A stretch of 64,000 bases of DNA from Candidatus Nomurabacteria bacterium (GCA_943356525.1 CALRFG010000005.1:2921-66920); one strand, 5' to 3'; positions 1-50,708 are shown, counted from the stretch's first letter. Notes: generated by a model from the letters alone, not told the origin. A program made the numbers and translations.

Positions 1-413
1 AATTTTTCACTAGGGTTGTTTGAAAAGCTTTGTCCAAAGGTCCTTATTTCCTTAAGTAGTCCTGCATCCATTAAGTCTACAATCTTCCCAAGATCTCCTG
101 CATTTCTTGAAATACGATCAGGAGCCCATGTTAGGATACCGTTGTATTTGTTCGCCTTTATATCCTCGATTATCTCGTTAAAGACCTCACGTTGTCCTGT
201 TTCTTTGGCTGAGTGGCTTTCTCTCTTCATTGTTACAATCTCCAGGTTTTCTCTCTCAGCGAGCTGTAACATCTCTTTTATCTGTGAATCTATTGAAAGA
301 ACCTGTCTTTCCTCAGATTCGGTTGATTTTCTTGCATAAAGGCAGTATTTAACCTTTACTGCTACTTGTGCCAATTGTGGCATTTCATAACCGATCGGTG
401 CTGTTGTTTTCAT
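1..413 (-). CDS. Serine recombinase (resolvase/invertase catalytic domain), N-terminal ~137 aa. The gene runs off the left window edge.
   Basis: Reverse-strand translation from ATG at 413: MKTTAPIGYEMPQLAQVAVKVKYCLYARKSTESEERQVLSIDSQIKEML...ILTWAPDRISRNAGDL. It shows the YxRxSTxxQ catalytic Ser motif and the resolvase DR(I/L)sR motif. It is absent from the ORF track only because it is truncated. Confidence 0.75.
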   Translation of the reverse strand, partial: MKTTAPIGYEMPQLAQVAVKVKYCLYARKSTESEERQVLSIDSQIKEMLQLAERENLEIVTMKRESHSAKETGQREVFNEIIEDIKANKYNGILTWAPDRISRNAGDLGKIVDLMDAGLLKEIRTFGQSFSNNPSEK

Positions 414-520
414 ATATACATTGATGACGCAAAAGTGAGAGTAAGTCTAGGGTTTTTGTTGATTGTAAAAGTTTATCCTGTTTACCAAAATACTTTAAAA
501 ATAAAGGTTTTTATAGTAAG

Positions 521-3500
521 ATGGATAATATGTCTACCTCAATAAATAATATTGGCGATAATACACTTTCTTCAAATTTAAAGAGTATTTTACCAAATTG
601 TGACAAAATAGATGCACTGGTTGGATATTTTTATTTCTCTGGATTTAAGGATTTACATAATGAATTAGCAGATAAACAGATAAGAATATTGGTTGGAATG
701 GATATTGATAAAAAGATTATAGATAAAGTTTCAACATTAAAAGATCTTAATTTAGATTCACATACAACTGATACAAAAATATCTTCTAGATCTGGATCAA
801 AGGATGATTATATTGAAAATTTTTCAAGGATTTTTAACGACACAGACTTTTTTGACAATGATGAGTCACAAAAATCTTTTGAGGTATTTCTGGATAAAAT
901 CAAAGACGGTAGTTTACAAATTAAAAAAACTCCACAAGCAAATCATTCTAAATTTTATATATTACATAATAAACCCGAATTCTCGACAAATGGAATAACT
1001 CCGGGTATTGTCATAGAAGGATCTAGTAACCTAACTTTCTCAGGTCTAAAAGGTCAAGGTGAGCATAATCGTATTTTAACCGAAAAACATTATTATGAAG
1101 AGGATGTTAAAAGATTTAATGAGACATGGGCTGATCCTAATAACATTATCATAACAGATTTAGATTCCGCAGAGAGTTTTATAAAAGAGATAAAAGATAA
1201 AATATGGCTCTATGCTCTGCCTGATCCAATGTTGATGTACTATAAGGTTTTAAGTGAGTATTTTGCAGTCTCCGAAATAGAAGATATGAAAACCCCAAAA
1301 CATATAACAGGCGGGAAGTTCTCTGATCTTAAGTATCAAAAAGATGCGATTAATCTAGGTATAGATCGTATTAAGAAATTCGGCGGCGTGATTATTGCTG
1401 ACGTGGTGGGTTTAGGTAAAAGTATTATCGCTTCTGCAATAGCTCATAATTTAGGATATAAAACTATAATCATTGCACCACCTCATCTTGAAAGTCAATG
1501 GAAAGATTATGCATCGGAATTTGATTTTAAGGGTCATATTTATTCAACAGGAAAAATAGAAGATGCCCTTCAAAGACATGAAGACGATAAAGGTAAGTTG
1601 TTAATAATACTAGATGAGGCTCATAAACACCGAAATGAGGATACTGGTAATTATAAATCTCTGCACAGACTTTGTGCAGGTAATTATGTAATGGCTTTAT
1701 CTGCAACACCTTTTAATAACGACCCAAAAGATATTTATGCCTTAATTAAATTATTTAGTACCCCCGGTCAATCAACAATAAGGACTGTTGAAAATTTAAG
1801 TATGTCATTCCATATGTTATTTAAAAGATACAAGGCTGTTCGGAGGGATTTAAGAAAAAATTCAAAAGATGAATCAGATGGTTCCGAAATTAAGATAGAA
1901 CTTCATTCAATTGCTGATGAATTAAGAAAAATGATCGAACCTCTTATTATAAGACGTTCTAGACTTGATTTGGAAGAGATCGATGAATATCGAGAGGACT
2001 TAAAAGCACAAGGTGTTGCTTTTGCGAAAGTAAAAGATCCTCAATTGTTAGAGTATGACCTTGGAGAAATGTTTGATTTATATGTTGAAACTCTTGAGAA
2101 GATAGCACCTGAAGATAAAAGTACTAGTTTTATAGGTGCCAGATATAAACCAGCGTCATATATAAATGAAGGATCAAAATTTTTAGAAAAACTTATTGAG
2201 CAGGATGATGAGGATGGTATGTCTGCTGAAGAAAAGTTGCAGAGAATTACTCAAGCGCAAAGTAACCTCGCTCGTTTTATGAGAAGACTTTTGGTACGTC
2301 GTTTTGAAAGTTCTATAGGTGCTTTCAAGTTGTCTTTAAAAAATATGATTGATTCTTCTGAAATAATGTTAGATTGGTATGTGAATCGTCGTGAGGTTCC
2401 TATATTTAAAAAAGGAATGTTGCCAGATACAGAATATTTAGATGAATTACCTGACAATGAGTTAGATGCTTTGATTCTAAATTTAGAAGAAAAAGGTTTG
2501 ATTAGAATACCTATTAATGAATTAAAATCTGACTTTATCAATGATCTTCAGCATGATATTAGTATATTAAGAGATATAGATAATGCTTGGTCAAACAAAA
2601 CAACTGATCCTAAATATAATTTTTTCAAACAAAAAATTATTCAATCACTTGAAGAAAATTCAAATAGAAAAATTGTAGTATTTACCGAATTCTCTGACAC
2701 TGCTAATTATGTGTTTGAAAAGTTAAAAAAAGATGGATTAAATAGGGCTTTTAAATATAGTTCTGAAGACGCATCTGATGATAATAAAAAAATAATAAAA
2801 CAAAACTTTGACGCAGGTTTAGATGAATCAAAACAGGTTAACGATTTTGATATTATTATTGCCACTGATGCAATTTCAGAAGGGTTCAATCTTCACAGGG
2901 CGGGTGCAATTATTAACTATGACATACCTTATAATCCAACACGTGTAATTCAACGTGTTGGACGTATTAATCGTATAAACAGAAAAGTGTTTGAAGAATT
3001 GTATATCTATAACTTTTTCCCAACACTTACTGGTGAAAAAGAAACAAGAACTAAAGCTATATCTACACTTAAGATGGATTTGATCCACACCCTTTTAGGT
3101 GAAGATACTAAAACCTTAACTTCAGAAGAGGATCTTCATAATTATTTTGCAAAACAATATAATGAAGAAAATAATAAAAATGAAAGTTTATCTTGGGATG
3201 CTCCATATAGAAACATGTGGCTTAAGATAAAAGATGATAAGAATATTATGGATCAAATATCTCGTATTCCTCATCGATCAAGAATTGCACGTAAAAATAA
3301 AGATGTCGATGGTGTTGTAGCTTTTGCAAAAAAAGGAAGTAGTTATGTGTTTGCTTTTGGTAAAACACCTGAAACCGTTGAAATAGTTTCTCCAAGAATT
3401 GCATTACCTTTATTTAATCAAGTTCTAGATTCTGAAACATCCTCACAGACAACTGTAAATTTTGATCCTATATACAAAATGGCAAAAGATCACATCTTTA

Positions 3501-3823
3501 AAGATAATACAAAAGCATCTGTTGATGGAGGTAGAAAGCAAGATTCTCTGAATAGAATTAAATTATTAAGTGAATTGTATCCACAAGCAAAAGATTTGTG
3601 TTTAGATATTATAAGATCAATCAAAGATCTGGATGCGTTACCAAATGGTGTTCTTAAGGAAATTGTTGAACTTCGTATTGATAAAACTAATCCAGAAAAA
3701 GCGTATCTTGAACTAAAAGAACTTATCCCAAGTAAATATCTAGAAAGTATATTTGAAACTGCTGATAGAGCAAATGATGATAGTCAACTAATTGTTCTTT
3801 CTGAAGAATTAATTAAAATATGA
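521..3823 (+). CDS. Fusion of an HKD (phospholipase-D family) nuclease domain and an SNF2-family helicase. Likely the restriction/translocase subunit of an RM-like defence module.
   Basis: The N-terminus carries HSKFYILHNK...GSSNLT (HxK(x)4D...GSxN PLD motif). Helicase motif I is ADVVGLGKSIIA, motif II is ILDEAHKHRN (DEAH), and motif III is SNF2-type LSATPFNNDPKDIYALIKLF. The C-lobe reads IIIATDAISEGFNLH...QRVGRINR. The gene overlaps the next gene by ATGA. Confidence 0.8.
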   Translation: MDNMSTSINNIGDNTLSSNLKSILPNCDKIDALVGYFYFSGFKDLHNELADKQIRILVGMDIDKKIIDKVSTLKDLNLDSHTTDTKISSRSGSKDDYIENFSRIFNDTDFFDNDESQKSFEVFLDKIKDGSLQIKKTPQANHSKFYILHNKPEFSTNGITPGIVIEGSSNLTFSGLKGQGEHNRILTEKHYYEEDVKRFNETWADPNNIIITDLDSAESFIKEIKDKIWLYALPDPMLMYYKVLSEYFAVSEIEDMKTPKHITGGKFSDLKYQKDAINLGIDRIKKFGGVIIADVVGLGKSIIASAIAHNLGYKTIIIAPPHLESQWKDYASEFDFKGHIYSTGKIEDALQRHEDDKGKLLIILDEAHKHRNEDTGNYKSLHRLCAGNYVMALSATPFNNDPKDIYALIKLFSTPGQSTIRTVENLSMSFHMLFKRYKAVRRDLRKNSKDESDGSEIKIELHSIADELRKMIEPLIIRRSRLDLEEIDEYREDLKAQGVAFAKVKDPQLLEYDLGEMFDLYVETLEKIAPEDKSTSFIGARYKPASYINEGSKFLEKLIEQDDEDGMSAEEKLQRITQAQSNLARFMRRLLVRRFESSIGAFKLSLKNMIDSSEIMLDWYVNRREVPIFKKGMLPDTEYLDELPDNELDALILNLEEKGLIRIPINELKSDFINDLQHDISILRDIDNAWSNKTTDPKYNFFKQKIIQSLEENSNRKIVVFTEFSDTANYVFEKLKKDGLNRAFKYSSEDASDDNKKIIKQNFDAGLDESKQVNDFDIIIATDAISEGFNLHRAGAIINYDIPYNPTRVIQRVGRINRINRKVFEELYIYNFFPTLTGEKETRTKAISTLKMDLIHTLLGEDTKTLTSEEDLHNYFAKQYNEENNKNESLSWDAPYRNMWLKIKDDKNIMDQISRIPHRSRIARKNKDVDGVVAFAKKGSSYVFAFGKTPETVEIVSPRIALPLFNQVLDSETSSQTTVNFDPIYKMAKDHIFKDNTKASVDGGRKQDSLNRIKLLSELYPQAKDLCLDIIRSIKDLDALPNGVLKEIVELRIDKTNPEKAYLELKELIPSKYLESIFETADRANDDSQLIVLSEELIKI

Positions 3824-6800
3824 AATTAAACGAAAAATACAATCAAACTTATTTTACTGAATTTGTGGCAAATCTTTTACCAGAAGATTTTGTTTTACGT
3901 GAGGAAGATATAATAATTAAAAAAGATAGGTATAAGGAAATAACCAAGGCAAAAGAACTTGGTTTTTGTAAGTCTTTAGATTTACATGTTTTAGAAATGG
4001 ATCATAATCACAACAAAGACCCTAGGGTTATTATTGCTACTGATGCGTTTAAGATATTGGCAGATCATTGGATTAATAAGGCACTAGTTATATTTAAAAA
4101 TAACGATTCAGAAAATTATCGTCTCTCGTACCTAACCATAAATCTTGATTTAAATGATAAAAACAAAATAATTAAAAATTACTCTAATGCCAGAAGATAT
4201 TCATTTTATCTAGGTGTTGGTGCTAAAACAAAAACACCTGAACAACAACTTTTGGGGAAGGGTAAGATAAAAGACCTAGAGGATTTACTTAACAGGTTTT
4301 CTGTTGAGGTAGTTAATAAACAGTTCTATTTAGAAGTTGCTAAGTTTTTCGACGAACTTGTTTCTGTTGATAAAGAAAATTTGGTTACACTTAATCCATT
4401 AAATGTTGGTTTAAACGCTCGAAAAAGTTTTGCTGTAAGACTTATTGGACGTATTATGTTTTGTTGGTTTCTTAAGCAAAAAAAATCTGACAGAGGTCAA
4501 TTAATTCCAGATGAAATACTGTCCTCTAAGGCTGTGTCTGGTAATTATTATCACAACATTTTAGAGCCTTTATTTTTTGGTATTTTAAACACAAGTATTG
4601 ACGCACGTGACATAAGAAGTGAATTATTTGATAATGTTCCTTATTTAAACGGTGGATTATTTAATCCTCAGGCTGATGATTATTATGAGTTAAATCGTGA
4701 TACTTTTGTTTCTAAATATGTAGATATTTTTACTATAAAAGATGATTGGTTTATAAAATTCTTTGAGCTTCTAGAGTTGTATAATTTCACCATTGATGAG
4801 AATACTGTTTTTGATCAAGAATTGTCTGTTGATCCTGAAATGTTGGGTCGTATTTTTGAAAATTTACTTGCTGAAATTAATCCAGAGACAGGTAGTAGTG
4901 AGCGTAAAAGAACAGGTAGTTTTTATACACCAAGGCAGATTGTAGAGTACATGGTTGATCAATCGTTGATTGAATATTTAGAAATAAATACTGGTATAGA
5001 AAATGGGAAAATAGCCGCCCTCGTTAGTTATGATTTAAATGATGATACAGAAAACCCTATTAATGATGAAGAAAAAAAGAAAATTATATATGCTCTTGAA
5101 TCTTTAAAGATATTAGATCCTGCCTGTGGATCTGGTGCTTATCCAATAGGTGTATTACAAAAAATTGTATATATACTTCAACAAATTGATCCAGATTGTA
5201 CCATGTGGTTAGATGAAAAACTTGTGGGTGTGTCGGATTTATATAAACAAAAAATAATCAACGAGGTAAAACAAAATCCTTTTGACTACACTAGAAAATT
5301 AGATGTAATTAAGAATTCTATTTTTGGTGTTGATATTCAACCCATTGCTGTAGATGTGGCTCGTTTAAGATGTTTCCTGACTTTGATTGTAGAATCTGAA
5401 ATTAATGATACAAAACCAAATAGGGGTATAGAACCATTACCAAACTTAGATTTTAAATTTGTGTGTGCTAACACTCTTATATCAGCACCTGAGCAAAGTA
5501 TTGAAGATGAAAACACTCTCTTCGGTGATTTTTTTCAAGAAAAAATGACTTCTGCCATAGATAGATATTTTTCATCATCTGGAGAAAATAAAAGAAGTGC
5601 TAATAATGAAATACATAAATTAATTGATGGAAAAATAGAAGAAAAAATAGGTCATATTGCAAATTTCACTTCACTTGGAGGTATTAAAGAGATTGAAGAG
5701 ATGCTTATAAAGGCTAATAAAAAAGATATAGACAAACATTCAAATATACTTAAATTATGGGCTAGTTATAAAAATATTTTTGAAAATAAACCTGTAGATT
5801 TTTTTGATACTAAATATTTTTTCCCGGGAATTAAAGATGGTTTTGATATAGTTATAGGTAATCCTCCTTATGTTCAAATTCAGAAGTTTTCAGGTACTGA
5901 GGTACAAAAAAATCTCCAAGATCAAAATTATAAAACTTTTGAAAAAACAGGTGACTTGTATGCTTTATTTTATGAGAGGGGTTTAATGTTAACAAAAAAG
6001 GATTATGGATTGCTTTGTTATATTACTTCAAATAAGTGGATGAGATCTGAATACGGAAGATCTCTTCGTCAATATTTTGTTGAACATGATCCTAAGATTC
6101 TTATTGATCTTGGGGGAAATGTTTTTGAATCTGCTACTGTTGATACGAATATTTTATTAATACAAAATAGAAAAAACAGAAAAGAAACAAGCGTGGTTTC
6201 TGTTAAAAGCGATAAGGGTGAATTTGGTACTCAAATAAAAAAAGATTCTATAAATATGTCTTTTTCAAACAACGACGGTTGGTTCATTGGATCTTTGTCA
6301 GAAATAGGTTTGAAAAATAAGATAGAAAAAATAGGAAAAAGACTTAAAGATTGGGATATTAAAATAAATTATGGAATAAAAACAGGTTACAATGAAGCTT
6401 TTGTTATCACAAAAGAAAAAAGAGATGAATTAATAAGTAAAGATTTTAAATCAGCTGAAATTATAAAGCCGATATTAAGAGGTAGAGATATAAAAAGATA
6501 TGCTTATGATTTTAAAGATTTGTATATTATAGCAACTGGTTATGATTTAGATGTGCCAAATATGTACCCAGCTATTTTTAATCATTTAAAACAATTTGAA
6601 CAAAAAGCAAAAAAGAGATGTGATAAGGGTAAGAATTGGTGGAATCTTCGGGCCTGTGTTTACTACGATGATTTTGCAAAAGATAAGGTTGTATGGGCAG
6701 AGACAGATCAAAACCTGAATAGTGTTTTAATTTCTGACGAATTTTATTTACAGAAAACTTGCTTTATGATTACTGGATCCAACTTGAAGTACATAAATGC

Positions 6801-7086
6801 TTTATTAAATTCAAAAATTTCTCAATATAATATTAGATCAATATGCTCTGGTTTAGGAGAAAAGGGTATGAGTTTAACCAAAGAATCAGTATCTAAGTTA
6901 CAAATTCCACCTATCACTAAAGAAAATCAAGATATTATTTCTAATATAGAAGCACTTGCTGGTCAAATCATTGAAGCAAAAAAATCAAATCTAGATTTAA
7001 CCACAAAGCATTTAGAAGCAAAAATTGATGATCTTGTATATAAACTATATGAATTGACTGAAAATGAAATAAAAATTATAGATTAA
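3820..7086 (+). CDS. Eco57I/MmeI/PglX-family (gamma-class) N6-adenine DNA methyltransferase with a C-terminal target-recognition domain. DrmMI/Type IIG-like.
   Basis: SFYTPRQIVEYMVDQ (FYTP motif X) is followed by ILDPACGSGAYP (motif I, FxGxG) and IVIGNPPYVQIQ (motif IV, NPPY). About 330 aa precede the MTase core and a ~380-aa C-terminal region is typical of a TRD. The 4-bp overlap with the upstream helicase implies translational coupling. Confidence 0.8.
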   Translation: MKLNEKYNQTYFTEFVANLLPEDFVLREEDIIIKKDRYKEITKAKELGFCKSLDLHVLEMDHNHNKDPRVIIATDAFKILADHWINKALVIFKNNDSENYRLSYLTINLDLNDKNKIIKNYSNARRYSFYLGVGAKTKTPEQQLLGKGKIKDLEDLLNRFSVEVVNKQFYLEVAKFFDELVSVDKENLVTLNPLNVGLNARKSFAVRLIGRIMFCWFLKQKKSDRGQLIPDEILSSKAVSGNYYHNILEPLFFGILNTSIDARDIRSELFDNVPYLNGGLFNPQADDYYELNRDTFVSKYVDIFTIKDDWFIKFFELLELYNFTIDENTVFDQELSVDPEMLGRIFENLLAEINPETGSSERKRTGSFYTPRQIVEYMVDQSLIEYLEINTGIENGKIAALVSYDLNDDTENPINDEEKKKIIYALESLKILDPACGSGAYPIGVLQKIVYILQQIDPDCTMWLDEKLVGVSDLYKQKIINEVKQNPFDYTRKLDVIKNSIFGVDIQPIAVDVARLRCFLTLIVESEINDTKPNRGIEPLPNLDFKFVCANTLISAPEQSIEDENTLFGDFFQEKMTSAIDRYFSSSGENKRSANNEIHKLIDGKIEEKIGHIANFTSLGGIKEIEEMLIKANKKDIDKHSNILKLWASYKNIFENKPVDFFDTKYFFPGIKDGFDIVIGNPPYVQIQKFSGTEVQKNLQDQNYKTFEKTGDLYALFYERGLMLTKKDYGLLCYITSNKWMRSEYGRSLRQYFVEHDPKILIDLGGNVFESATVDTNILLIQNRKNRKETSVVSVKSDKGEFGTQIKKDSINMSFSNNDGWFIGSLSEIGLKNKIEKIGKRLKDWDIKINYGIKTGYNEAFVITKEKRDELISKDFKSAEIIKPILRGRDIKRYAYDFKDLYIIATGYDLDVPNMYPAIFNHLKQFEQKAKKRCDKGKNWWNLRACVYYDDFAKDKVVWAETDQNLNSVLISDEFYLQKTCFMITGSNLKYINALLNSKISQYNIRSICSGLGEKGMSLTKESVSKLQIPPITKENQDIISNIEALAGQIIEAKKSNLDLTTKHLEAKIDDLVYKLYELTENEIKIID

Positions 7087-7394
7087 CTTTGTTAATAGTG
7101 TGGTGTTGGTAACTTAACTACACAAATCCTTTTTATTAAGCTAAGCTTTAAAAGTACCTAAAAAATTGGTATAATCAAATCACAATTTAACAGTCGACCT
7201 AACCCCTAAAAGCCTTGTGTTTCTAGGATATGGTTGCAAATCCGTCCAAAGTAAAGAACTCCTAGTCAGGGTTCACTTTGGACGGTCATATCTGGAAACA
7301 GGTATGGACACTCCCTACGGGGTTTGTCGACCTGGCTAGGAGCTTTTTACTACCTAGTCAGATCACAATTAATCATAAAAAACCGTCCAAATTT

Positions 7395-7736
7395 ATGAAA
7401 AAAATAATTAGTAGTATTTTTAATTCTACAACCGCACTCATACTTGGTATATTAGTTTTAATTTCAGGAGCTAATCCGGGTCAGTATGGAAATTTAGCAA
7501 CAGGTTTTCTTATTATAATCGGAACCTTAGCATATAGGTCAGCTAAAAAAAGAATTGCATCAGGTTCTAAAAATAACACTAAGTTTGTTTTTGAGATAAT
7601 TGCAATGATTGTAATTGTTCTCACAATTATACTTCAAAACAACCTTGCTCAAGTTCTTGTGGAGGATCCTTTTCCGAATCTAATAATCCCTGCAATATTG
7701 ATAGGTTCATATATTAATATTATAAGAAAAAAATAA
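7395..7736 (+). CDS. Small hydrophobic membrane protein (hypothetical).
   Basis: The ATG at 7395 (MKKIISSIF...) sits inside track ORF 7278..7736. Several predicted TM segments. The long upstream region is structured and non-coding. Confidence 0.4.
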   Translation: MKKIISSIFNSTTALILGILVLISGANPGQYGNLATGFLIIIGTLAYRSAKKRIASGSKNNTKFVFEIIAMIVIVLTIILQNNLAQVLVEDPFPNLIIPAILIGSYINIIRKK

Positions 7737-7777
7737 TCATATAAATAAATACCACAGATTACTCTGTGGTATTTACG

Positions 7778-8311
7778 TTACTCACTCTCATAGGTTTCTT
7801 GTTCGTCAGATTGATCCATCATTTCCTTGAATGTTCCGTTGTGTACCATCTCAACTAATTTTTCTACCTCTTCCTCAGACATGTTTTCTTTCTCGGCTAC
7901 ATATGCAATATTCTCTAAGTATTCCATCTCTTCTTTCGTTAAAGCAATAACGTTAGGTATGCGAGCATGTGCATATGCTGGAGAATCGTGATAATTCCTG
8001 TCTTTCAAAGTTTCAATTCTGTATTTTCGGTTCATGTAATTACCATGATTGTTTTCAAGATAGAATTTGATAGCACCGAAGTGACCTTCTTTAATCTTTT
8101 TGAACAATGCAGACTCTGTAAGCTCAATCATACACTTGTGTCCTTCTTGTAATGCTCCATTTACATTGATTTGAAACATCTTATCGCTCCTCATCCAACG
8201 ATAGAAAGTGTTACGAGATATACCAACTTTTTTGGTCGCATGGTTTATGAAAGGGGCATCACGAAGAATATCGACGATATCTTGCTTAAACTTGTTGTGG
8301 TTGAGACTCAT
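7778..8311 (-). CDS. Phage-type HTH DNA-binding protein, terminase small subunit-like.
   Basis: ATKKVGISRNTFYRWMRSDKMF helix-turn-helix near the N-terminus and an acidic C-terminus. Its start overlaps the upstream ParB-MTase stop by 26 bp. This pairing is common in phage packaging modules. Confidence 0.4.
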   Translation of the reverse strand: MSLNHNKFKQDIVDILRDAPFINHATKKVGISRNTFYRWMRSDKMFQINVNGALQEGHKCMIELTESALFKKIKEGHFGAIKFYLENNHGNYMNRKYRIETLKDRNYHDSPAYAHARIPNVIALTKEEMEYLENIAYVAEKENMSEEEVEKLVEMVHNGTFKEMMDQSDEQETYESE

Positions 8312-9659
8312 GAATTTTTACCCGTTTTTTACCGGTTAATTTTTCCCAACGATTTAGTATTACTTCAGCATACACAGGAGACTTCTCCATGATGAAGCAT
8401 TTTCTGTGTAGCTTTGTTGAAGCGATAAGTGTCGATCCAGATCCACCGAAAGGTTCAAGAACGAGCTGTCCTCGTTTGGTGAGTACTTTGATATATGGAA
8501 TCAGAATCTCGATTGGTTTCGTACCGAATATTATCCCTTGTCCCGATGACTTCTCATCAGCTGCATTGTAATCAATGAAATCAGTTGGACAGAATTTCTT
8601 TCCTTTACCATATGACTCCCAATGAGGTTTACCTTGAATAGCAAAGAGGGCGGTCTCGTATTCATTCTGTAATAACTGATCATCTTCAGGTTCAATATCA
8701 CATTCGATATTTTCATCCGATGTAGCAACCATGGCTATGTCATGTTTGTTAAAGAACTTATGAGTTCCTGCATAACCTTGATTACGATTCGGAAGTCTCC
8801 ACACGACCATGTTTCTTACTTTCCAATGCTTATCCATCTCACCCCAAATGGTTCGAATGTTTTTCCAATTCTCATAGCAAATGATTGAGAAATCTTTTGC
8901 TTGAACTTTGGTGACGTTTGCCATCCATAATTCTGTGAAGTTGTCAGGTAATATATCTGTCTCAAGATATCTGCGATTTTTCTTAGCACCAAATCCTGTA
9001 ACAGCATCTCCATGTTTTCCTTTACCGTGTAGGTAATCTAGAATATATGGAGGATCTGTCATCACCATGTCTACCTTATTTTCGCCACATAGCATCAGCA
9101 TGTTTTCTTCGATGGTGGAATCACCGCACATTAAGCGTGATCCATCTAGATCATATATGTCACCTTTTTGCACCGTTACGTTTTCAATACCAACCTTACT
9201 CAACTCTTTTTCAAGATCAAATATGGTTTCGGTATCCTCGTCCTCGAATATCTGATCAAGCTCAATAGAATCAAATCCCAAGTCTTCAAGAAATGACTCG
9301 TCGAACTTAGCTAATAATTCTAAATCCCATTCACCCTGGTTTTTGTTAAGACGAAGACACAGCTCTTTTTCTTTATCTAGATCTGGAATATTAATGTATA
9401 CGACAGGAACTTCTGTGTATCCAAGCTCTTTGAGAACTTTGAGTCTGAAGTTTCCTCCGATGACAATATTTTTTCTTTCTTCGGCAGAGTTGGCAAGGAT
9501 AGGATCAACTATGCCGTAGCGAGTGATACTATCTTTTAACTCTTTTGTATTTTGTTCTGACCAAGTCCGTGGATTATAGTCAGGGGAGATTAGTAAGTTT
9601 GTTTCGATGTACACGACATCAAGTTTTGGATCATTTGACCCTATGTTTATGTTTTGCAT
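8286..9659 (-). CDS. ParB-like nuclease domain fused to a beta-class (N4-C/N6-A) DNA methyltransferase. Phage-type orphan methylase.
   Basis: The N-terminus is ParBc-like (YNPRTWSEQNTKELKDSITRYGIVDPILAN). The MTase has motif IV VMTDPPY upstream of motif I FGGSGST, which is the beta-class order. Confidence 0.8.
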   Translation of the reverse strand: MQNINIGSNDPKLDVVYIETNLLISPDYNPRTWSEQNTKELKDSITRYGIVDPILANSAEERKNIVIGGNFRLKVLKELGYTEVPVVYINIPDLDKEKELCLRLNKNQGEWDLELLAKFDESFLEDLGFDSIELDQIFEDEDTETIFDLEKELSKVGIENVTVQKGDIYDLDGSRLMCGDSTIEENMLMLCGENKVDMVMTDPPYILDYLHGKGKHGDAVTGFGAKKNRRYLETDILPDNFTELWMANVTKVQAKDFSIICYENWKNIRTIWGEMDKHWKVRNMVVWRLPNRNQGYAGTHKFFNKHDIAMVATSDENIECDIEPEDDQLLQNEYETALFAIQGKPHWESYGKGKKFCPTDFIDYNAADEKSSGQGIIFGTKPIEILIPYIKVLTKRGQLVLEPFGGSGSTLIASTKLHRKCFIMEKSPVYAEVILNRWEKLTGKKRVKIHESQPQQV

Positions 9660-10083
9660 GGTTTTGTTGTTTTTGTTGAGACGTCTTACTATAGGACAGT
9701 AAAACTATCTCGTTATTACAACTTCTTACGAAGAGGGGTCAGTGATGTATTTTCATTATTGCACTATAAAAAATCTTAGCAAGTGGTATGTGTTAATAAG
9801 TCTTATATTATAGCACTGCTATAATATCCTTATACAGTAAGGCTTTTATGTGTATCATTTGTAACATTTTTGTCAAAACACCTATGTTTTTCAATGAATT
9901 GTCGTTCAAAAATGATACACATAATTTTTCTATTTTTATACTAAAAAGTATCGGTTTGACACATGTATTTTATTGTTTTATATAAATATATTACTTATCA
10001 ATATCAATATTTTATTGCAAAGATGTAAAATTGTTAAAAATATCTATATTGATTTATAGAATGAAAGTAATAAAATTATATAC

Positions 10084-10752
10084 ATGGCAATATCTAAAAA
10101 GGCTATTGAAAATTACGAAAAAAGTTTAAATAAAAAGAATGGTATGAGTATTTTGTATGAACAATCGTCAGGTGGTATGGATAACCTGGCAAAGGTATTT
10201 GATCTTTTGTTTAAATTCAAAGTAGAAGACGATAAGAGAAAAGAAAAGTTAAAAGATTTTCCAAATGGTTTTGAATTAGAGGGTAGGGGTAGAACCTGCT
10301 ATATATGTAAAGACTCAAATTATGGAGATAAACCAAGCTGGTATGATAAATATGGTGTTAAGTGTTTAGTCTGTCAGTACGCTATTAACCAAAATGAGAT
10401 AGATCCAGAACTTATAAAAAGCGATGAGGATTGGTATTCAAAATATGACCTAGAATCTAAGTTTAATTTAAAAACACCGACCATAAGAGGTTGGGTAAAG
10501 AAAGGTCTCCTTAAGGAGAGGATTTTGAGTTGTTATGGAAAAGGTGCACATGTTAGGTTGTACTTAGTAGAAGATAATAAAGATTTTTTACCACCTAAAT
10601 ACATGGTTAAATCAGATATTGTAAATATTAAAGAGGGTGACAGAACTTATTCAAGTTTAGAGCCTTGGTATAATTTTGTTGATCCATACAAACATTTGAA
10701 AGGATATGGAATTATGGAGTATGTGATGGTTAGTGAAAAAGATGGTGAATAA
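10084..10752 (+). CDS. Zinc-ribbon protein (CxxC...CxxC). Candidate retron accessory/effector protein.
   Basis: GRTCYICKDSNYGDKPSWYDKYGVKCLVCQ. It is co-oriented with, and immediately upstream of, the candidate msr/msd and the RT. No recognisable enzymatic motif. Confidence 0.5.
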   Translation: MAISKKAIENYEKSLNKKNGMSILYEQSSGGMDNLAKVFDLLFKFKVEDDKRKEKLKDFPNGFELEGRGRTCYICKDSNYGDKPSWYDKYGVKCLVCQYAINQNEIDPELIKSDEDWYSKYDLESKFNLKTPTIRGWVKKGLLKERILSCYGKGAHVRLYLVEDNKDFLPPKYMVKSDIVNIKEGDRTYSSLEPWYNFVDPYKHLKGYGIMEYVMVSEKDGE

Positions 10753-10802
10753 CTTATATTAGAATAATAATTTTCATGTTATAATACTTATGCTTGTATT
10801 TT

Positions 10803-11014
10803 AAAAACCACCCATTTTTTATCTTTTTATACAAAAGATTTCAAGTTTAAAATCAAAACATAAGACACTGTATAAACTTTACTATAAGACTTCGTCGAAT
10901 AGAATAGTTTGAACAGTTGAGATGTTAGAATTTGTCCCTTGAGAGATTATCTTTTTGAGAGGTATAGTAGTCACATACTAACAATGATCGCAATACAAGT
11001 TAGTGGGGTGGTTT
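10803..11014 (+). ncRNA. Candidate retron msr/msd non-coding RNA bounded by a1/a2 inverted repeats.
   Basis: a1 is aaaaaccaccc (10803-10813) and a2 is ggggtggttt (11005-11014). Their 10-nt cores (10804-10813 vs 11005-11014) are reverse complements at 9/10 positions and lie ~200 nt apart. An extended -10 TGTTATAAT at 10778-10786 sits just upstream, and the RT ORF follows a2. The internal msd stem and the branching G were not confidently resolved. Confidence 0.35.
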
Positions 11015-11129
11015 GGTCGTTGTCCACTTCAACAAATTAAATATATGGATAATATTATTATCACTTTATTTATAATGTATCTCATAATATGTGAGACACA
11101 TAAAAGATAAGACCTTAGTGGATAATAAA

Positions 11130-12005
11130 ATGATATACTCATCCAAAAAAGAACTATTAGAATTTCTAAATATAAAAGAAAATTTTCTTTATCCTGATTT
11201 TTCAAAAAAATATTATACAAAAGAATTAAAAAAGAAAAGTGGAGGTATTCGCTTAATAAAACCTCCGAGTGTTAACCTAAAAAAAGTTCAAAGATTAATT
11301 CTGGATAAAATACTTTATAAACATAAGAACCTTGAGTGTGTGTATGGTTTATCTAAAGATAAAGGTGTTGTTGCAAATGCAAATTTTCATAAGAAAAATT
11401 TTGATAAACAATTGGTAAATTTAGATATAGAAAACTTTTTTACTAATGTTTTAAAAAAAGAGGTCAACAAGGTATTTAAAAGTTTAGGTTTTAATAAAGA
11501 AAATTCAAATATTCTAACAAAAATATGTACGGTGGAAGGTTCTTTACCTCAGGGTGCGCCAACCAGTCCATATTTAGCTTCTTTATCTTGTATAAAAATG
11601 GATAAAGAGATATATAACTATTGTAGAAAACAAAAGTTTACTTATACTCGTTATTTTGACGATATAAGTATTTCTGGAATGAATATTAATGATAAAAATA
11701 TTGTTGATATTGAAAAGATAGTAAACAAAAATAAATTTAATTTAAATAAAACAAAAACTACATTTTATGAAGCAGATTTAGATAAGATTATAAATGGAGT
11801 TTTTATATCCAAAAATGGTTTATCTGTTACTAATAAATATAAAGATGAGGTAAAGAGTTTGTATATTAATTATTTGAAAGATCCCTGTGTTCATAATAAA
11901 AAAGCCTACAAAGGTAAACTTAGTTTTTATTTACATATAAACAAAAAAGAAGCTGTTGATTTTATTAATAAAATAAGCTATCTAACTGGGATTGGACCAG
12001 TGTAG
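11130..12005 (+). CDS. Retron-type reverse transcriptase.
   Basis: The RT motifs are SGGIRLIKPPS (RT1/2), NANFH (NAxxH) directly before LDIENFF (motif A), LPQGAPTSPYLASL (motif B'), YTRYFDDISISG (Y-x-DD), and INGVFIS in the position of the retron VTG motif. The protein is ~290 aa. The track ORF starts at GTG 11091; the ATG at 11130 is preferred. Confidence 0.8.
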   Translation: MIYSSKKELLEFLNIKENFLYPDFSKKYYTKELKKKSGGIRLIKPPSVNLKKVQRLILDKILYKHKNLECVYGLSKDKGVVANANFHKKNFDKQLVNLDIENFFTNVLKKEVNKVFKSLGFNKENSNILTKICTVEGSLPQGAPTSPYLASLSCIKMDKEIYNYCRKQKFTYTRYFDDISISGMNINDKNIVDIEKIVNKNKFNLNKTKTTFYEADLDKIINGVFISKNGLSVTNKYKDEVKSLYINYLKDPCVHNKKAYKGKLSFYLHINKKEAVDFINKISYLTGIGPV

Positions 12006-12035
12006 ACAGCTTGTGTAAGAATGAATTAACGGAAA

Positions 12036-13058
12036 TTACTTCTTTCTTCTTGTGATAAACACGATTGAGAAAATCAAAAGTATCATTATTTGTGACGGTT
12101 CAGGAATTGTTGTGGGTGTTAGGAGGAAAACATTACCATTACTTCCTATACCTGCAATTTGTCCTTGATCGTTAATCACTCGAGGGTAAAAAACACCTCC
12201 AGTCGGATCTAAATCAGAAACAATTTCAATGTCTTTAAAAGTACCATTATCATAGATACGATTTCCAGCAATAATTTGACCCAAATTGTTAATATCTCTC
12301 ATGTCATAATCGGGAAAGTAAGCAGTAACACCGTCTTTCCAAAGAAAACCACCGTTGCTGGACATTCCGATTATTTGACCGTCGTCGTTTATTGCAAATG
12401 ACTCACTATAACTTCCTGTAAGACCAAGACTTGATATGGTACCGTTTTGCCACATAACTGCACTTATTGTTCCTGATCCGTAAGATTTACCAACTGTTAT
12501 ATTGTTGTTATTAATATCATTTGCCTGCGCTCTGGTGTCATTAGAGAGATGAGGTAGGCTAATCGTGATTCCGTTTTCGAGATAAAAGTTACCTCCAAGA
12601 TTTACAGATCCACCTCCGACTACGACACCGCTGTCGTTTATTGAATATGCAATGCTTCCGTTTGATGGACCTATTCCTGTTGTTAATAAATCGGCACCAA
12701 TGTTGTTTTGTAAAACAAAGCTACGATTTACCCCTGGTAAACTAGGGGAAGTGTATGAACCAACCACTTGTCCAGAGTTGTTTACGGAATATGCTCTTGT
12801 AGATGTGTTTGTAAATATTCCACCGAGGTTGTTAAGAATCGTGACCGATCCATTATTCCAGACAATACCTTTGGTTGATGAGTTTGCGCCGTGTAACGAA
12901 TAACCTGTTACAGTTCCTGAATTGTTGATGTCTGTAAGTGTGATTGTGTCACTGAGGTCTGTGTTCGGATTACCAAGGTTGACCGCTGTGTAGAACAGGC
13001 TAGCTGCCGACAGTATTGGACTGAATGCGAGGACGATGATTGAGATGTAAGTTTTCAT
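12036..13058 (-). CDS. Secreted repeat protein with a PEP-CTERM sorting signal (exosortase substrate-like).
   Basis: N-terminal signal peptide MKTYISIIVLAFSPILSAAS. Repeated NxSGxVVG/NDDGQIIG modules. The C-terminus ...TTIPEPSQIMILLIFSIVFITRRKK has PEP, a TM helix and a basic tail. Confidence 0.65.
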   Translation of the reverse strand: MKTYISIIVLAFSPILSAASLFYTAVNLGNPNTDLSDTITLTDINNSGTVTGYSLHGANSSTKGIVWNNGSVTILNNLGGIFTNTSTRAYSVNNSGQVVGSYTSPSLPGVNRSFVLQNNIGADLLTTGIGPSNGSIAYSINDSGVVVGGGSVNLGGNFYLENGITISLPHLSNDTRAQANDINNNNITVGKSYGSGTISAVMWQNGTISSLGLTGSYSESFAINDDGQIIGMSSNGGFLWKDGVTAYFPDYDMRDINNLGQIIAGNRIYDNGTFKDIEIVSDLDPTGGVFYPRVINDQGQIAGIGSNGNVFLLTPTTIPEPSQIMILLIFSIVFITRRKK

Positions 13059-46808: not shown

Positions 46809-47071
46809 AGACGACCATACAGTATGATAATAAACCAACGAAAAAAACGGATATAAAGACCAAAGCAATAGCTTAAAGTTTTCATATCCGCTTTTCGTTG
46901 AAAGCGGATTTTCCTTCGCAAATTGACAATTACAAACCTTCGCGTAAACAAATTGTTGAGTAAACAGTTTGGCAATCGGGATTTCTCAGGAAAGCCCCCG
47001 GTTGAAAAATTAGGTAAACGCAGAAGGATAATTAACATACATTTTCACGATTGTGGTATATGTATTTCCTA

Positions 47072-50465
<3,394 letters not shown>

Positions 50466-50591
50466 ATATGTATATCCAATCGTGAAAGTGTATGTTAATT
50501 AAATTGTAATTGAAAATCAAAAGTACGTGAGCTAAGCGAAAGATTTCTTTCTTGAAATCTGAAAGCTTAGCGAGCGTCATCGAATCTTTTG

Positions 50592-50708
50592 TTCTGGTGA
50601 CTCGTTGGAGGGGCCACACCTGATCTCATTCCGAACTCAGAAGTTAAGCCCTCTTAAGGCGATGGTACAAGCTTTACGCAAGGAGAGTAGCTTGTCGCCG
50701 GAACAAAG
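50592..50708 (+). rRNA. rrf: 5S ribosomal RNA.
   Basis: CCACACCTGATCTCATTCCGAACTCAGAAGTTAAGCCC...GCGATGGTAC...GAGAGTAGCTTGTCGCCGGAA. The terminal helix pairs with the 5' end ttctggtgac. Confidence 0.85.

Follow-up and report, generated by a model that had tools for sequence, protein, structure and literature searches.

A putative two-subunit restriction-modification module joining a PLD-SNF2 protein to a Type IIG-like methyltransferase on a mobile element of a candidate-phyla-radiation bacterium

Introduction

Type ISP restriction enzymes such as LlaGI and LlaBIII carry an Mrr-type nuclease, an SF2 HsdR-like motor, a methyltransferase (MTase) and a target recognition domain (TRD) in one chain; they recognise an asymmetric site and then translocate by ATP hydrolysis before cleavage, which occurs when convergent enzymes collide. 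For these enzymes, PMC12707154 cites Chand et al. 2015. CglI and NgoAVII divide nuclease and ATPase between two proteins; the nuclease uses a B3 DNA-binding domain, and the MTases are separate Type II enzymes. Class 1 DISARM consists of DrmA, DrmB, the PLD protein DrmC, the SNF2 protein DrmD and DrmMI.

Restriction subunits that join an HKD domain to an SF2 or SNF2 helicase have already been described (PMC12839542, PMC10853773). SauUSI has an N-terminal PLD nuclease fused to a helicase (PMC12707154), in PbeA the helicase joined to the HKD domain is of the SF2 type (PMC10853773), and ATP-dependent systems resembling restriction-modification (RM), with an HKD+SF2-helicase restriction subunit, form a general kind (PMC10853773, PMC12839542). 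A DUF499 AAA+ ATPase is the defining component of BREX-related (BR) systems, and 98% of Type-2 BR taxa also carry DUF3780; the Type-2 effector has an N-terminal HKD endoDNase and a Swi2/Snf2 helicase, and its partner in this RM-like arrangement is an N6-adenine MTase (PMC12839542).

Here we analyse a gene pair within 64,000 nucleotides of DNA (the window) from a Candidatus Nomurabacteria bacterium. A preliminary description had called the pair a minimal DISARM-like or split Type ISP-like module of undescribed architecture. It has neither a name nor a study of its own, but the claim that the architecture is undescribed was too strong: HKD+SF2/SNF2 subunits are known, and the exact HKD-SNF2/MTase pairing has one incidental mention, in Table 3 of PMC9881135. 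PADLOC labels the pair only "Type IIG". We regard it as a conserved, widespread and unnamed module of RM type, putatively for defence, and favour, with a probability of about 0.68, the reading that it is a two-subunit ATP-dependent RM system, analogous to a Type ISP enzyme divided in two but built from a PLD nuclease and SNF2 motor.

Results

The features of the locus are as follows (nucleotide positions in the window, with strand; aa, residues of the protein).

1-413, minus: N-terminus of a serine recombinase (from the translation), its gene cut by the window edge
521-3823, plus: gene 1, 1100 aa, putative restriction (R) subunit (ORF and Pfam)
Gene 1, about aa 15-230: N-terminal nuclease domain of the PLD family with a single HKD motif (H142, K144, GSSN 167-170)
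Gene 1, about aa 270-840: SNF2-type ATPase/translocase (Walker A 297-301, DEAH 365-368, motif VI 810-817)
Gene 1, about aa 840-1100: conserved C-terminal region with no assigned fold
3820-3823, plus: ATGA junction, in which the gene 2 ATG (3820-3822) overlaps the gene 1 TGA (3821-3823), read from the sequence
3820-7086, plus: gene 2, 1088 aa, Eco57I/MmeI-family N6-adenine MTase with a TaqI_C-type TRD (ORF and Pfam)
3820-4389, plus: gene 2 N-terminal domain, aa 1-190, alpha-beta-beta-beta-alpha-beta, a restriction-endonuclease-like topology
4390-4809, plus: gene 2 helical spacer, about aa 195-330
4810-5469, plus: conserved half of the gamma-class N6-adenine MTase domain, about aa 330-550 (Pfam Eco57I, MmeI_Mtase)
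5470-7086, plus: gene 2 hypervariable half, about aa 550-1088, with a helical insert, motif IV and the TaqI_C-type TRD (about aa 880-1030)
7778-8311, minus: TerS-like HTH protein (Pfam HTH_Tnp_1_2)
8286-9659, minus: ParB_N + N6_N4_Mtase protein (Pfam)

Both reading frames, their strand and extents, and all motifs quoted in the preliminary description were present in the translations. Gene 1 is predicted to encode a PLD nuclease with one HKD motif, joined to a full SNF2 ATPase, the fusion proposed earlier: PLDc_2 (29.8 bits; cut-off 27), SNF2-rel_dom (41.9; cut-off 24.9) and Helicase_C (60.2; cut-off 23.5) all matched above their Pfam thresholds, the PADLOC 'HKD+Snf2' model C3a139 spanned aa 15-837, and the PADLOC PbeA model aligned to aa 13-344. 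The translation contains the PLD motifs HSKFYILH (aa 142-149) and GSSNLT (167-172), together with the motor motifs GLGKS (297-301), DEAH (365-368), LSATPFNN (393-400) and QRVGRINR (810-817). Catalytic residues, those of the HKD motif included, were invariant across nine homologs of 25-61% identity from several phyla and an archaeon, and conservation was even along the protein (0.48-0.92; 27 sequences). For the C-terminal region, the structure model was of low confidence (pLDDT 60).

Gene 2 matched the Pfam families Eco57I (126 bits), N6_Mtase (47.9 bits; aa 672-797) and TaqI_C (36.5 bits; aa 883-1027), which bears out the assignment to an Eco57I/MmeI-family MTase with a TRD. Motif X (SFYTP) lies at aa 366-370, the SAM-binding motif I (DPACGSG) at 432-438 and the catalytic motif IV (NPPY) at 680-683. 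Mean identity to the window's protein was 0.71-0.88 over aa 330-550 (25 sequences); it fell to 0.11-0.46 in the C-terminal half, while aa 1-550 held at 0.60-0.88. Many tblastn alignments to relatives ended at about aa 684-800, and truncated or split relatives broke at about aa 520-560. This pattern points to the hypervariable half as the specificity module, exchanged between relatives.

What had been taken for a single N-terminal domain of ~330 aa in gene 2 proved to be two parts, an alpha/beta domain of ~190 aa and an MmeI-type helical spacer of ~100 aa, the latter equivalent to the 'helicase spacer' domain of MmeI and to the helical domain with which Type I M subunits begin. The alpha/beta domain occupies the place of the PD-(D/E)xK nuclease in MmeI and other Type IIG enzymes. 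Among 65 homologs, no conserved Asp or Lys was found at the PD-(D/E)xK positions; the invariant residues were Arg, Ser, Thr, Asn and Lys on other strands, and a basic/polar patch was kept (R101, S103, T106, S122, N123, R126, K136, T139). Judged by sequence, the domain appears to have retained a restriction endonuclease (REase)-like fold and lost its catalytic residues, and the nuclease looks dead. It marks the family and may act as its docking or DNA-contact module.

The ATGA overlap, reported earlier and confirmed at 3820-3823, implies translational coupling of genes 1 and 2. The pairing itself was conserved, with the MTase gene following the helicase gene in 30/30 related Patescibacteria loci; counting the window's own pair among these 30, the 4-nt ATGA overlap occurred in 26 and a 2-nt gap in the remaining four. 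At distant loci, the genes overlapped by 1-14 nt. The pair was also found in Bacteroidota, and related gene orders in Thermaceae and one archaeon. An HKD-SNF2 gene lay directly upstream in all six distant proteins that had gene 2's N-terminal domain, and a domain of this type adjoined an HKD-SNF2 gene in 37/37 loci inspected, no other setting being found. In every locus examined, the gene pair is an obligate, translationally coupled unit. There was no fused single-chain form among the 150 representatives listed, since the N-terminal domain begins within 15 residues of the N-terminus in nearly all of them and the longest is 1,351 aa or less.

This linkage bears on the best-surviving alternative, in which gene 2 would be a self-sufficient Type IIG enzyme whose N-terminal nuclease is atypical yet active, and gene 1 an accessory or second-line effector that, for example, processively degrades cut DNA. 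A strong full-length PADLOC Type IIG match to gene 2 (473 bits) is consistent with such an enzyme, as are the MmeI-like layout of an REase-like domain followed by a helical spacer, the retention of E59 in 53/65 homologs, and the listing of such genes by Milman et al. among the homologs of Cj0031, an active Type IIG enzyme. However, the model leaves aa 1-157 of gene 2 uncovered, the 65 homologs conserve no Asp or Lys where PD-(D/E)xK would place them, and constant adjacency to HKD-SNF2 genes would be unexpected for an autonomous enzyme. We therefore consider this alternative unlikely and prefer the two-subunit RM system: with an HKD-SNF2 gene invariably coupled to gene 2, cleavage would be expected to require ATP and to fall to the other subunit.

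A smaller chance still attaches to a reduced DISARM or BREX-related (BR/Hma) system that would share the mechanism of its parent system and need partners (DrmA/DrmB, or a DUF499 ATPase and DUF3780) elsewhere in the genome. DrmD was the best named match for gene 1 (PADLOC 108 bits, NCBIfam 141 bits), gene 2 gave weak DrmMI and PglX matches, a distant gene 1 homolog from B. cereus (25% identity) is located in a DrmA/DUF1998 locus, and Type-2 BR likewise pairs an HKD+Swi2/Snf2 helicase with an N6-MTase (PMC12839542). Against this, the 141 bits of DrmD (NF038317 DISARM_DrmD) compare with a cut-off of 610 and cover aa 576-924 only, the C-terminal part of the helicase, to which the PADLOC HmaA match (84 bits) was also confined. 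PglX (NCBIfam BREX_1_MTaseX) scored 92.5 bits against a cut-off of 500, and gene 2 scored 472.9 bits (E 5e-142) with PADLOC REase_MTase_IIG versus 92.7 with DrmMI.

Partner genes were likewise missing. As the preliminary description had remarked for DrmA, DrmB and PglZ, these and BrxC had no match in the neighbours or large ORFs of the window, which starts inside the recombinase gene. DrmA/DrmB were absent within about 10 kb in >35 related loci, and DrmA, DrmB, PglZ, BrxC and DUF499 were not among the recurrent neighbours in these (7-10 kb flanks), DrmA and DrmB being missing from the recurrent neighbour clusters of 36 loci; the DUF499 AAA+ ATPase and DUF3780 were absent from the window's neighbours, from Pfam-annotated related loci and from recurrent clusters. 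Because DrmA/DrmB/PglZ/DUF499 are not conserved at these loci and the scores fall far under the DrmD and PglX cut-offs, the pair is not DISARM or BREX. Class 1 DISARM was rejected for its missing DrmA/DrmB, the low DrmD score and an MTase not of DrmMI type; BREX (types 1-6) for its missing PglZ/BrxC and the low PglX score; and BR/Hma for its missing DUF499, which defines it, and the missing DUF3780 of Type-2 BR. Movement as a two-gene unit on small elements also argues against dependence on such partners.

The serine recombinase, HTH_Tnp_1_2 and ParB_N + N6_N4_Mtase genes of the window place the pair beside recombinase and phage genes, as first described. Serine recombinases (Resolvase + Recombinase + Zn_ribbon_recom) adjoined the pair in 16 related loci, and clusters of TerS-like HTH and ParB-methylase genes recurred next to it in 13-14. 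These recurring element genes support the proposal of a mobile defence cargo, and the two genes spread together from one genome to another on small mobile elements. That the pair serves its element and not host defence, through addiction, exclusion of competitors, or epigenetic control with SNF2 remodelling DNA-protein complexes, would fit its position beside a serine recombinase, TerS/TerL, a ParB-methylase and a LexA-like repressor in about half of the loci and its presence in two IMG/VR contigs, but is improbable given that many loci (at least six) hold the pair without those genes, that the catalytic HKD residues are strictly kept, that TRD hypervariability is a signature of RM arms races, and that defence, addiction and exclusion can coexist in RM systems.

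Discussion

Under the two-subunit reading, gene 2 would be the modification-and-specificity (M+S) subunit, a gamma N6-adenine MTase derived from Type IIG/IIL enzymes, whose TRD would read a short, probably asymmetric DNA site and whose activity would methylate the host copies, presumably on one strand. Gene 1 would be the R subunit. Once a physical complex of the two sits on an unmethylated site, the SNF2 motor would begin to translocate on dsDNA by ATP hydrolysis. Since a PLD active site takes two HKD motifs and gene 1 supplies one, cutting is expected when two complexes meet or dimerise. Riding as cargo on a serine-recombinase mobile element, the pair would probably act against phage.

More tentatively, and at somewhat less than even odds, the pair could typify a separate class of NTP-dependent RM systems, widespread but as yet without a name, in which a IIG-derived MTase-TRD subunit with a dead nuclease recruits a PLD/SNF2 subunit, and cleavage is gated by HKD dimerisation as translocating complexes meet. 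If so, many 'Type IIG' annotations would denote M+S subunits of two-component enzymes, and the class would rank among the main defences of Patescibacteria (CPR), with small serine-recombinase/terminase elements as its vehicles.

Among known systems, class 1 DISARM shares a PLD nuclease, an SNF2 helicase and an Eco57I/PglX-like N6-adenine MTase with the pair, but PLD and SNF2 are fused in gene 1, and neither DrmA nor DrmB (DUF1998) is present. Type-2 BR matches gene 1 by Pfam in architecture (HKD + Swi2/Snf2), orthology aside; BR MTases, however, are described as resembling BrxXI and as ending in HTH-like domains, whereas gene 2 resembles Type IIG enzymes and has a TRD of the TaqI_C type. As in Type IIG enzymes, an Eco57I/MmeI-family MTase and a TRD share one polypeptide; unlike in MmeI, Eco57I, BpuSI and Cj0031 (Type IIG/IIL), the N-terminal domain falls outside the models and, among the 65 homologs, is without the PD-(D/E)xK residues of an active endonuclease.

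Joined end to end, genes 1 and 2 would give the Type ISP order of nuclease, SF2 motor, linker, gamma N6-adenine MTase and TRD, a separate methyltransferase or specificity gene is unnecessary in both, and by analogy the pair is predicted to recognise an asymmetric site and to translocate by ATP prior to cleavage. The pair differs in consisting of two coupled genes, in having a single-HKD PLD and not an Mrr-type PD-(D/E)xK nuclease, in its SNF2-family and not HsdR/RecA-type motor, and in the degenerate REase-like domain and MmeI-type spacer retained in gene 2. Sequence searches of the PDB gave only TaqI MTase and generic SNF2/DEAD proteins, with no sequence-level kinship to Type ISP detected. 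The likeness is functional, not one of membership. Of the two labels first proposed, split Type ISP-like is thus upheld in this sense, by domain order, coupling and the apparent loss of the MTase's nuclease, and DISARM-like is not, in view of the scores and the missing DrmA/DrmB.

CglI, NgoAVII, SauUSI and PbeA rely for NTP-dependent restriction on an HKD/PLD nuclease coupled to an SF2-type ATPase, a combination that the pair shares. SauUSI differs in being a Type IV enzyme that depends on modification, carries an SRA domain and has no MTase, and Pbe in requiring both a CxC ABC ATPase and a protein like DndE. With an HKD endoDNase-SF2 helicase fusion genetically linked to a DNA methyltransferase, the pair belongs to the general RM-like kind in the Aravind lab's usage.

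The HKD-SNF2 gene and its overlapping methyltransferase gene

The preliminary description placed two translationally coupled open reading frames on the forward strand of the window. We recovered both at the same coordinates, together with the ATGA overlap of stop and start codons and every motif that it had quoted from the two translations:

521-3823, + strand: gene 1, 1100 aa by ORF translation, HKD-PLD nuclease fused to a SNF2 ATPase
3820-7086, + strand: gene 2, 1088 aa by ORF translation, Eco57I/MmeI-family N6-adenine methyltransferase (MTase) with a TaqI_C TRD
3820-3823, + strand: ATGA junction read from the sequence, gene 2 ATG overlapping gene 1 TGA

Pfam searches assigned PLDc_2 (aa 53-203), SNF2-rel_dom and Helicase_C to gene 1 and Eco57I, N6_Mtase, MmeI_Mtase and TaqI_C to gene 2, and the initial observation of an HKD-SNF2 gene paired with an MTase gene is confirmed. 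Among PDB sequences, matches were confined to TaqI MTase and to SNF2 or DEAD proteins of a generic kind. A promoter/terminator scan of this AT-rich DNA returned 42 sites, with 41.3 expected.

We compared nine gene 1 homologs drawn from several bacterial phyla and an archaeon (25-61% identity). Residues H142, K144 and G167-S-S-N170 of the HKD nuclease were invariant in all nine, as were the Walker A motif (G297/G299/K300), the DEAH box (365-368), A395-T-P397 and motif VI (Q811-R812/G814-R815), so selection acts on nuclease and ATPase alike. Gene 1 holds one copy only of the HKD motif; single-HKD domains, such as those of Nuc and BfiI, need a second copy to complete the active site. The C-terminal ~260 residues of gene 1 are also conserved. 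An AlphaFold2 model of the last 267 aa was of low confidence (pLDDT 60, pTM 0.36). BrxHII, RapA and BR helicases end in an 'inactive REase + alpha/beta' module (PMC12839542), and one idea is that the gene 1 C-terminus is a candidate counterpart of it.

Conservation of the pair across genomes

Homologs of gene 1 number in the thousands. The best 120 protein clusters match it over the full length at 66-88% identity, and most of them come from metagenome bins of Patescibacteria (CPR). Scanning a single genome for each species yielded 31 loci, nearly all labelled CPR, to which we added five metagenome loci. Wherever downstream sequence was available (30 loci), a gene 2 homolog directly followed the helicase, so that the pairing is kept in 30/30 loci; 26 share the ATGA overlap and the remaining four have a 2-nt gap. 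When all neighbouring ORFs were clustered, the pair was the sole constant. Behind it in frequency came the genes of a mobile-element module: serine recombinase (16 loci), ParB-methylase (14), TerS-like HTH protein (13) and large terminase (10).

The linkage also held in the reverse direction. Starting from proteins that share only the first 200-340 residues of gene 2 (34-45% identity), we found a PLDc_2-SNF2-Helicase_C gene (~1,080-1,097 aa) immediately upstream in 6/6 cases, overlapping or closely adjoining the MTase gene (as two ORFs in L046, one of the related loci). A tblastn search of 72,556 plasmids with the N-terminal domain of gene 2 matched only a Parabacteroides distasonis plasmid, on which a 42%-identical 'SNF2-related protein' precedes an 'N-6 DNA methylase' of 1133 aa; the alignment of the latter with gene 2 runs over the whole length, N-terminus included. 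On a haloarchaeal plasmid a 1313-aa Eco57I-family MTase adjoins a gene 1 homolog. Among cultured-phage genomes there was no close homolog, the best match being 26% identical (Erysipelothrix phage phi1605). Two Thermaceae plasmids have a three-gene order of Eco57I-family MTase, conserved unknown gene and HKD-SNF2:

L038 3801-11342: Allomeiothermus plasmid pMESIL02
L039 4593-11378: Thermus oshimai pTHEOS02

The Thermaceae MTase is 787 aa long and lacks the TaqI_C TRD, and the middle protein (327-412 aa) is 43% identical between the two plasmids. Perhaps the middle gene encodes a detached specificity subunit; the three genes would then form a Type I-like R/M/S arrangement.

No universal third gene accompanies the pair: SduA_C, DUF2779, cluster c10 and the L048/L030 family were each present in subsets of loci only. 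In subsets of loci the pair is followed by large ORFs (~900-1,165 aa) that match nothing in Pfam or PADLOC and fall into two unrelated families. They may act as optional third components or may be unknown defence genes that adjoin the pair. Their positions are:

L015 16316-19813; L027 7358-10447; L003 17600-20335; L016 17088-20031; L048 10332-13244, overlapping the MTase stop by 8 nt; L030 11792-14539

In one lineage a complete Shedu gene, SduA (L001 16558-17775, + strand; PADLOC 4.7e-111), begins 3 nt past the MTase stop and is a complete, independent Shedu system. In L004 the same position is held by a DUF2779 gene with a weak Cas4-like nuclease match; further nucleases or defence genes seem to accumulate at this site behind the pair.

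A hypervariable specificity half in gene 2

We compared 25 gene 2 sequences with the window protein. Identity is 60-88% over residues 1-550 but only 11-46% over residues 550-1088, where the helical insert, the MTase half with NPPY and the TaqI_C TRD lie. In the genomes where this C-terminal half of gene 2 varies, gene 1 shows uniform conservation. Judged by sequence, this division is the pattern of TRD swapping in restriction-modification systems. PLD-SNF-linked loci elsewhere switch TRDs by a shufflon, or programmed inversion (PMC9881135). We rejected a shufflon here because window positions 1-12500 hold no meaningful inverted repeats and no silent TRD copies.

Several gene 2 relatives are truncated or split, with the break at ~residues 520-560, precisely where the conserved half gives way to the hypervariable one. 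Truncated, split or interrupted MTase genes lie at:

L003 13267-16114
L044 8001-9563
L045 8001-9680
L046 8001-11759
L047 8001-10564

One of these breaks is a DUF559/Vsr-like insertion. The HKD-SNF2 gene is intact beside the broken MTase genes except in L046, where it is also split. Breaks that recur at this boundary suggest either a hot spot of recombination or genes that are often inactivated.

A proposed mechanism

We conclude that the pair, which is widespread and unnamed, is probably an ATP-dependent restriction-modification system with an HKD-helicase restriction subunit. Gene 2 would serve as the modification and specificity (M+S) subunit, its TRD reading a short site at which host DNA is methylated, and gene 1 as the restriction (R) subunit, recruited to unmethylated sites. 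Driven by ATP, the SNF2 motor would then translocate on double-stranded DNA, and once two complexes met, their HKD domains would dimerise and cut. We put the probability of this general scheme at roughly two in three; within it, we infer complex formation, translocation, gating of cleavage by collision and methylation of one strand.

A scan with PADLOC models matched gene 2 to single-gene "Type IIG" models and gene 1 to no named two-gene system's model. PADLOC would thus call gene 2 'Type IIG' and place gene 1 in no system. The main rival reading keeps gene 2 as a self-sufficient Type IIG enzyme, with gene 1 in an accessory role; we consider it improbable, since gene 2 is strictly tied to its neighbouring gene and the catalytic residues are missing from its REase-like N-terminal domain (aa 1-190).

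The pair as cargo of a mobile element

The suggestion that the pair sits beside a serine recombinase and phage genes was borne out. The N-terminus of the recombinase lies on the minus strand to the left, cut by the window edge, and a TerS-like HTH protein and a ParB_N + N6_N4 methylase lie to the right, followed by a retron-type reverse transcriptase and then ordinary chromosomal genes. A small mobile element of CPR bacteria carries the pair as its cargo. In Patescibacteria we found a recurrent module of large serine recombinase, TerL (Terminase_6C), TerS-like HTH, ParB_N-N6_N4 methylase and LexA/S24 repressor, which looks like a prophage or phage satellite and within which the pair sits at varying positions. 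The window copy lacks TerL and has the reverse transcriptase, and two IMG/VR contigs (L042, L043) contain the pair. Features of the element and of the flanking DNA are:

1-413 (-) and 7778-9659 (-): mobile-element module, also in L001, L003, L004, L006, L010, L011, L015 and L020
7196-7324 (+): LOOT sRNA (Rfam RF03000, 70.9 bits), ~110 nt downstream of gene 2; also L003 4144-4263 (-) and L004 3508-3638 (+)
11091-12005 (+): retron-type reverse transcriptase (Pfam RVT_1; PADLOC RT_II-A 2.3e-65, RT_III-A 2.2e-64)
12036-13058 (-): 340-aa ORF, no Pfam match
47067-50466 (+): 23S rRNA, with a group I intron at 49960-50163
50593-50703 (+): 5S rRNA, after the 23S rRNA

We rejected the LOOT RNA as part of the pair: it has its own extended -10 promoter-like site (7147-7175), and in L003 and L004 its neighbour is the serine recombinase, with the pair far away. 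It therefore seems to be a part of the CPR mobile element, perhaps an RNA that the element encodes or an attachment region. A TTG-initiated ORF at 7278-7736 overlaps LOOT, and the start of this small membrane-protein gene is therefore probably at 7395.

The retron-type region spans 10084-12005 (+). Ahead of the reverse transcriptase come a 222-aa ORF without a Pfam or PADLOC match and a gap of 338 nt (10753-11090), which may accommodate msr/msd RNA; with this region the island would have a second candidate defence locus. The 340-aa ORF has an N-terminal signal-like segment, Gly/Asn/Ser-rich repeats and a C-terminal hydrophobic anchor. GC content climbs there from ~0.27 to 0.40, and the island probably ends on its right-hand side at 12036-13058. 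The host is of CPR type, with ~30% GC. The window lacks a 16S rRNA, and ARAGORN detected no tRNA across its 64 kb; the rRNA arrangement, with its intron-bearing 23S, fits a CPR/Patescibacteria genome.

Implications for defence annotation

Our search for literature on PLD, SNF2 and Eco57I found no paper naming, analysing or testing such a two-gene system, and a 2025 review of restriction-modification biology nowhere mentions SNF2. Automated defence annotation misses half of the HKD-SNF2/MTase system. The gene 2-type family comprises at least ~400-600 protein clusters at 50% identity; if the gene 2 nuclease is lost and HKD-SNF2 is needed, these are wrongly annotated as Type IIG enzymes that work alone. 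Mobile elements of CPR bacteria, a group with poorly known immune repertoires, appear to carry the pair commonly as defence cargo. If our reading is true, the pair is a compact two-gene, programmable (TRD-swapping) ATP-dependent restriction enzyme. Its union of SNF2 motor and PLD nuclease, a combination new to restriction-modification biochemistry, could reveal how SNF2 translocases are coupled to DNA cleavage.

Comparison with known systems

The preliminary description had also proposed a minimal DISARM, a reading that failed tests of membership. The best named matches of gene 1 are DrmD models, with coverage limited to the C-terminal part of the helicase, and against the NCBIfam DrmD equivalog it scores 141 bits (cut-off 610). 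The model with the best coverage of gene 1 is PADLOC C3a139 'HKD+Snf2', an uncharacterised cluster near type III CRISPR loci (PMC6546367). Gene 2 scores 92.5 bits against PglX (cut-off 500), and with PADLOC 473 bits against Type IIG models versus 93 bits against DrmMI. DrmA, DrmB, PglZ, BrxC and DUF499 were absent from the window and from the recurrent neighbours of the pair.

On Bacillus cereus plasmid pMRY14-0105_1 (L041 3134-16867), a 25%-identical HKD-SNF2 homolog lies with DrmA, DUF1998, DUF4391, a methyltransferase and a DEAD/DEAH helicase, in what appears to be a DISARM-like system with fused PLD and SNF2 functions. The wider HKD-SNF2 superfamily thus has DISARM-type members, from which the family of the pair is separate. 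[quoted passage not shown] By these scores and neighbourhoods the pair is not DISARM, BREX or BR/Hma.

The likening of the pair to a split Type ISP enzyme is supported as a functional analogy. Across the two proteins the order runs nuclease, motor, linker, (apparently dead nuclease + spacer), MTase and TRD; this matches the order in Type ISP enzymes, although the nuclease and motor come from different families. The pair is a variation on known restriction-modification logic and not a new principle; its main value lies in the reinterpretation of a sizeable set of 'Type IIG' genes and in a compact candidate SNF2-PLD restriction enzyme.
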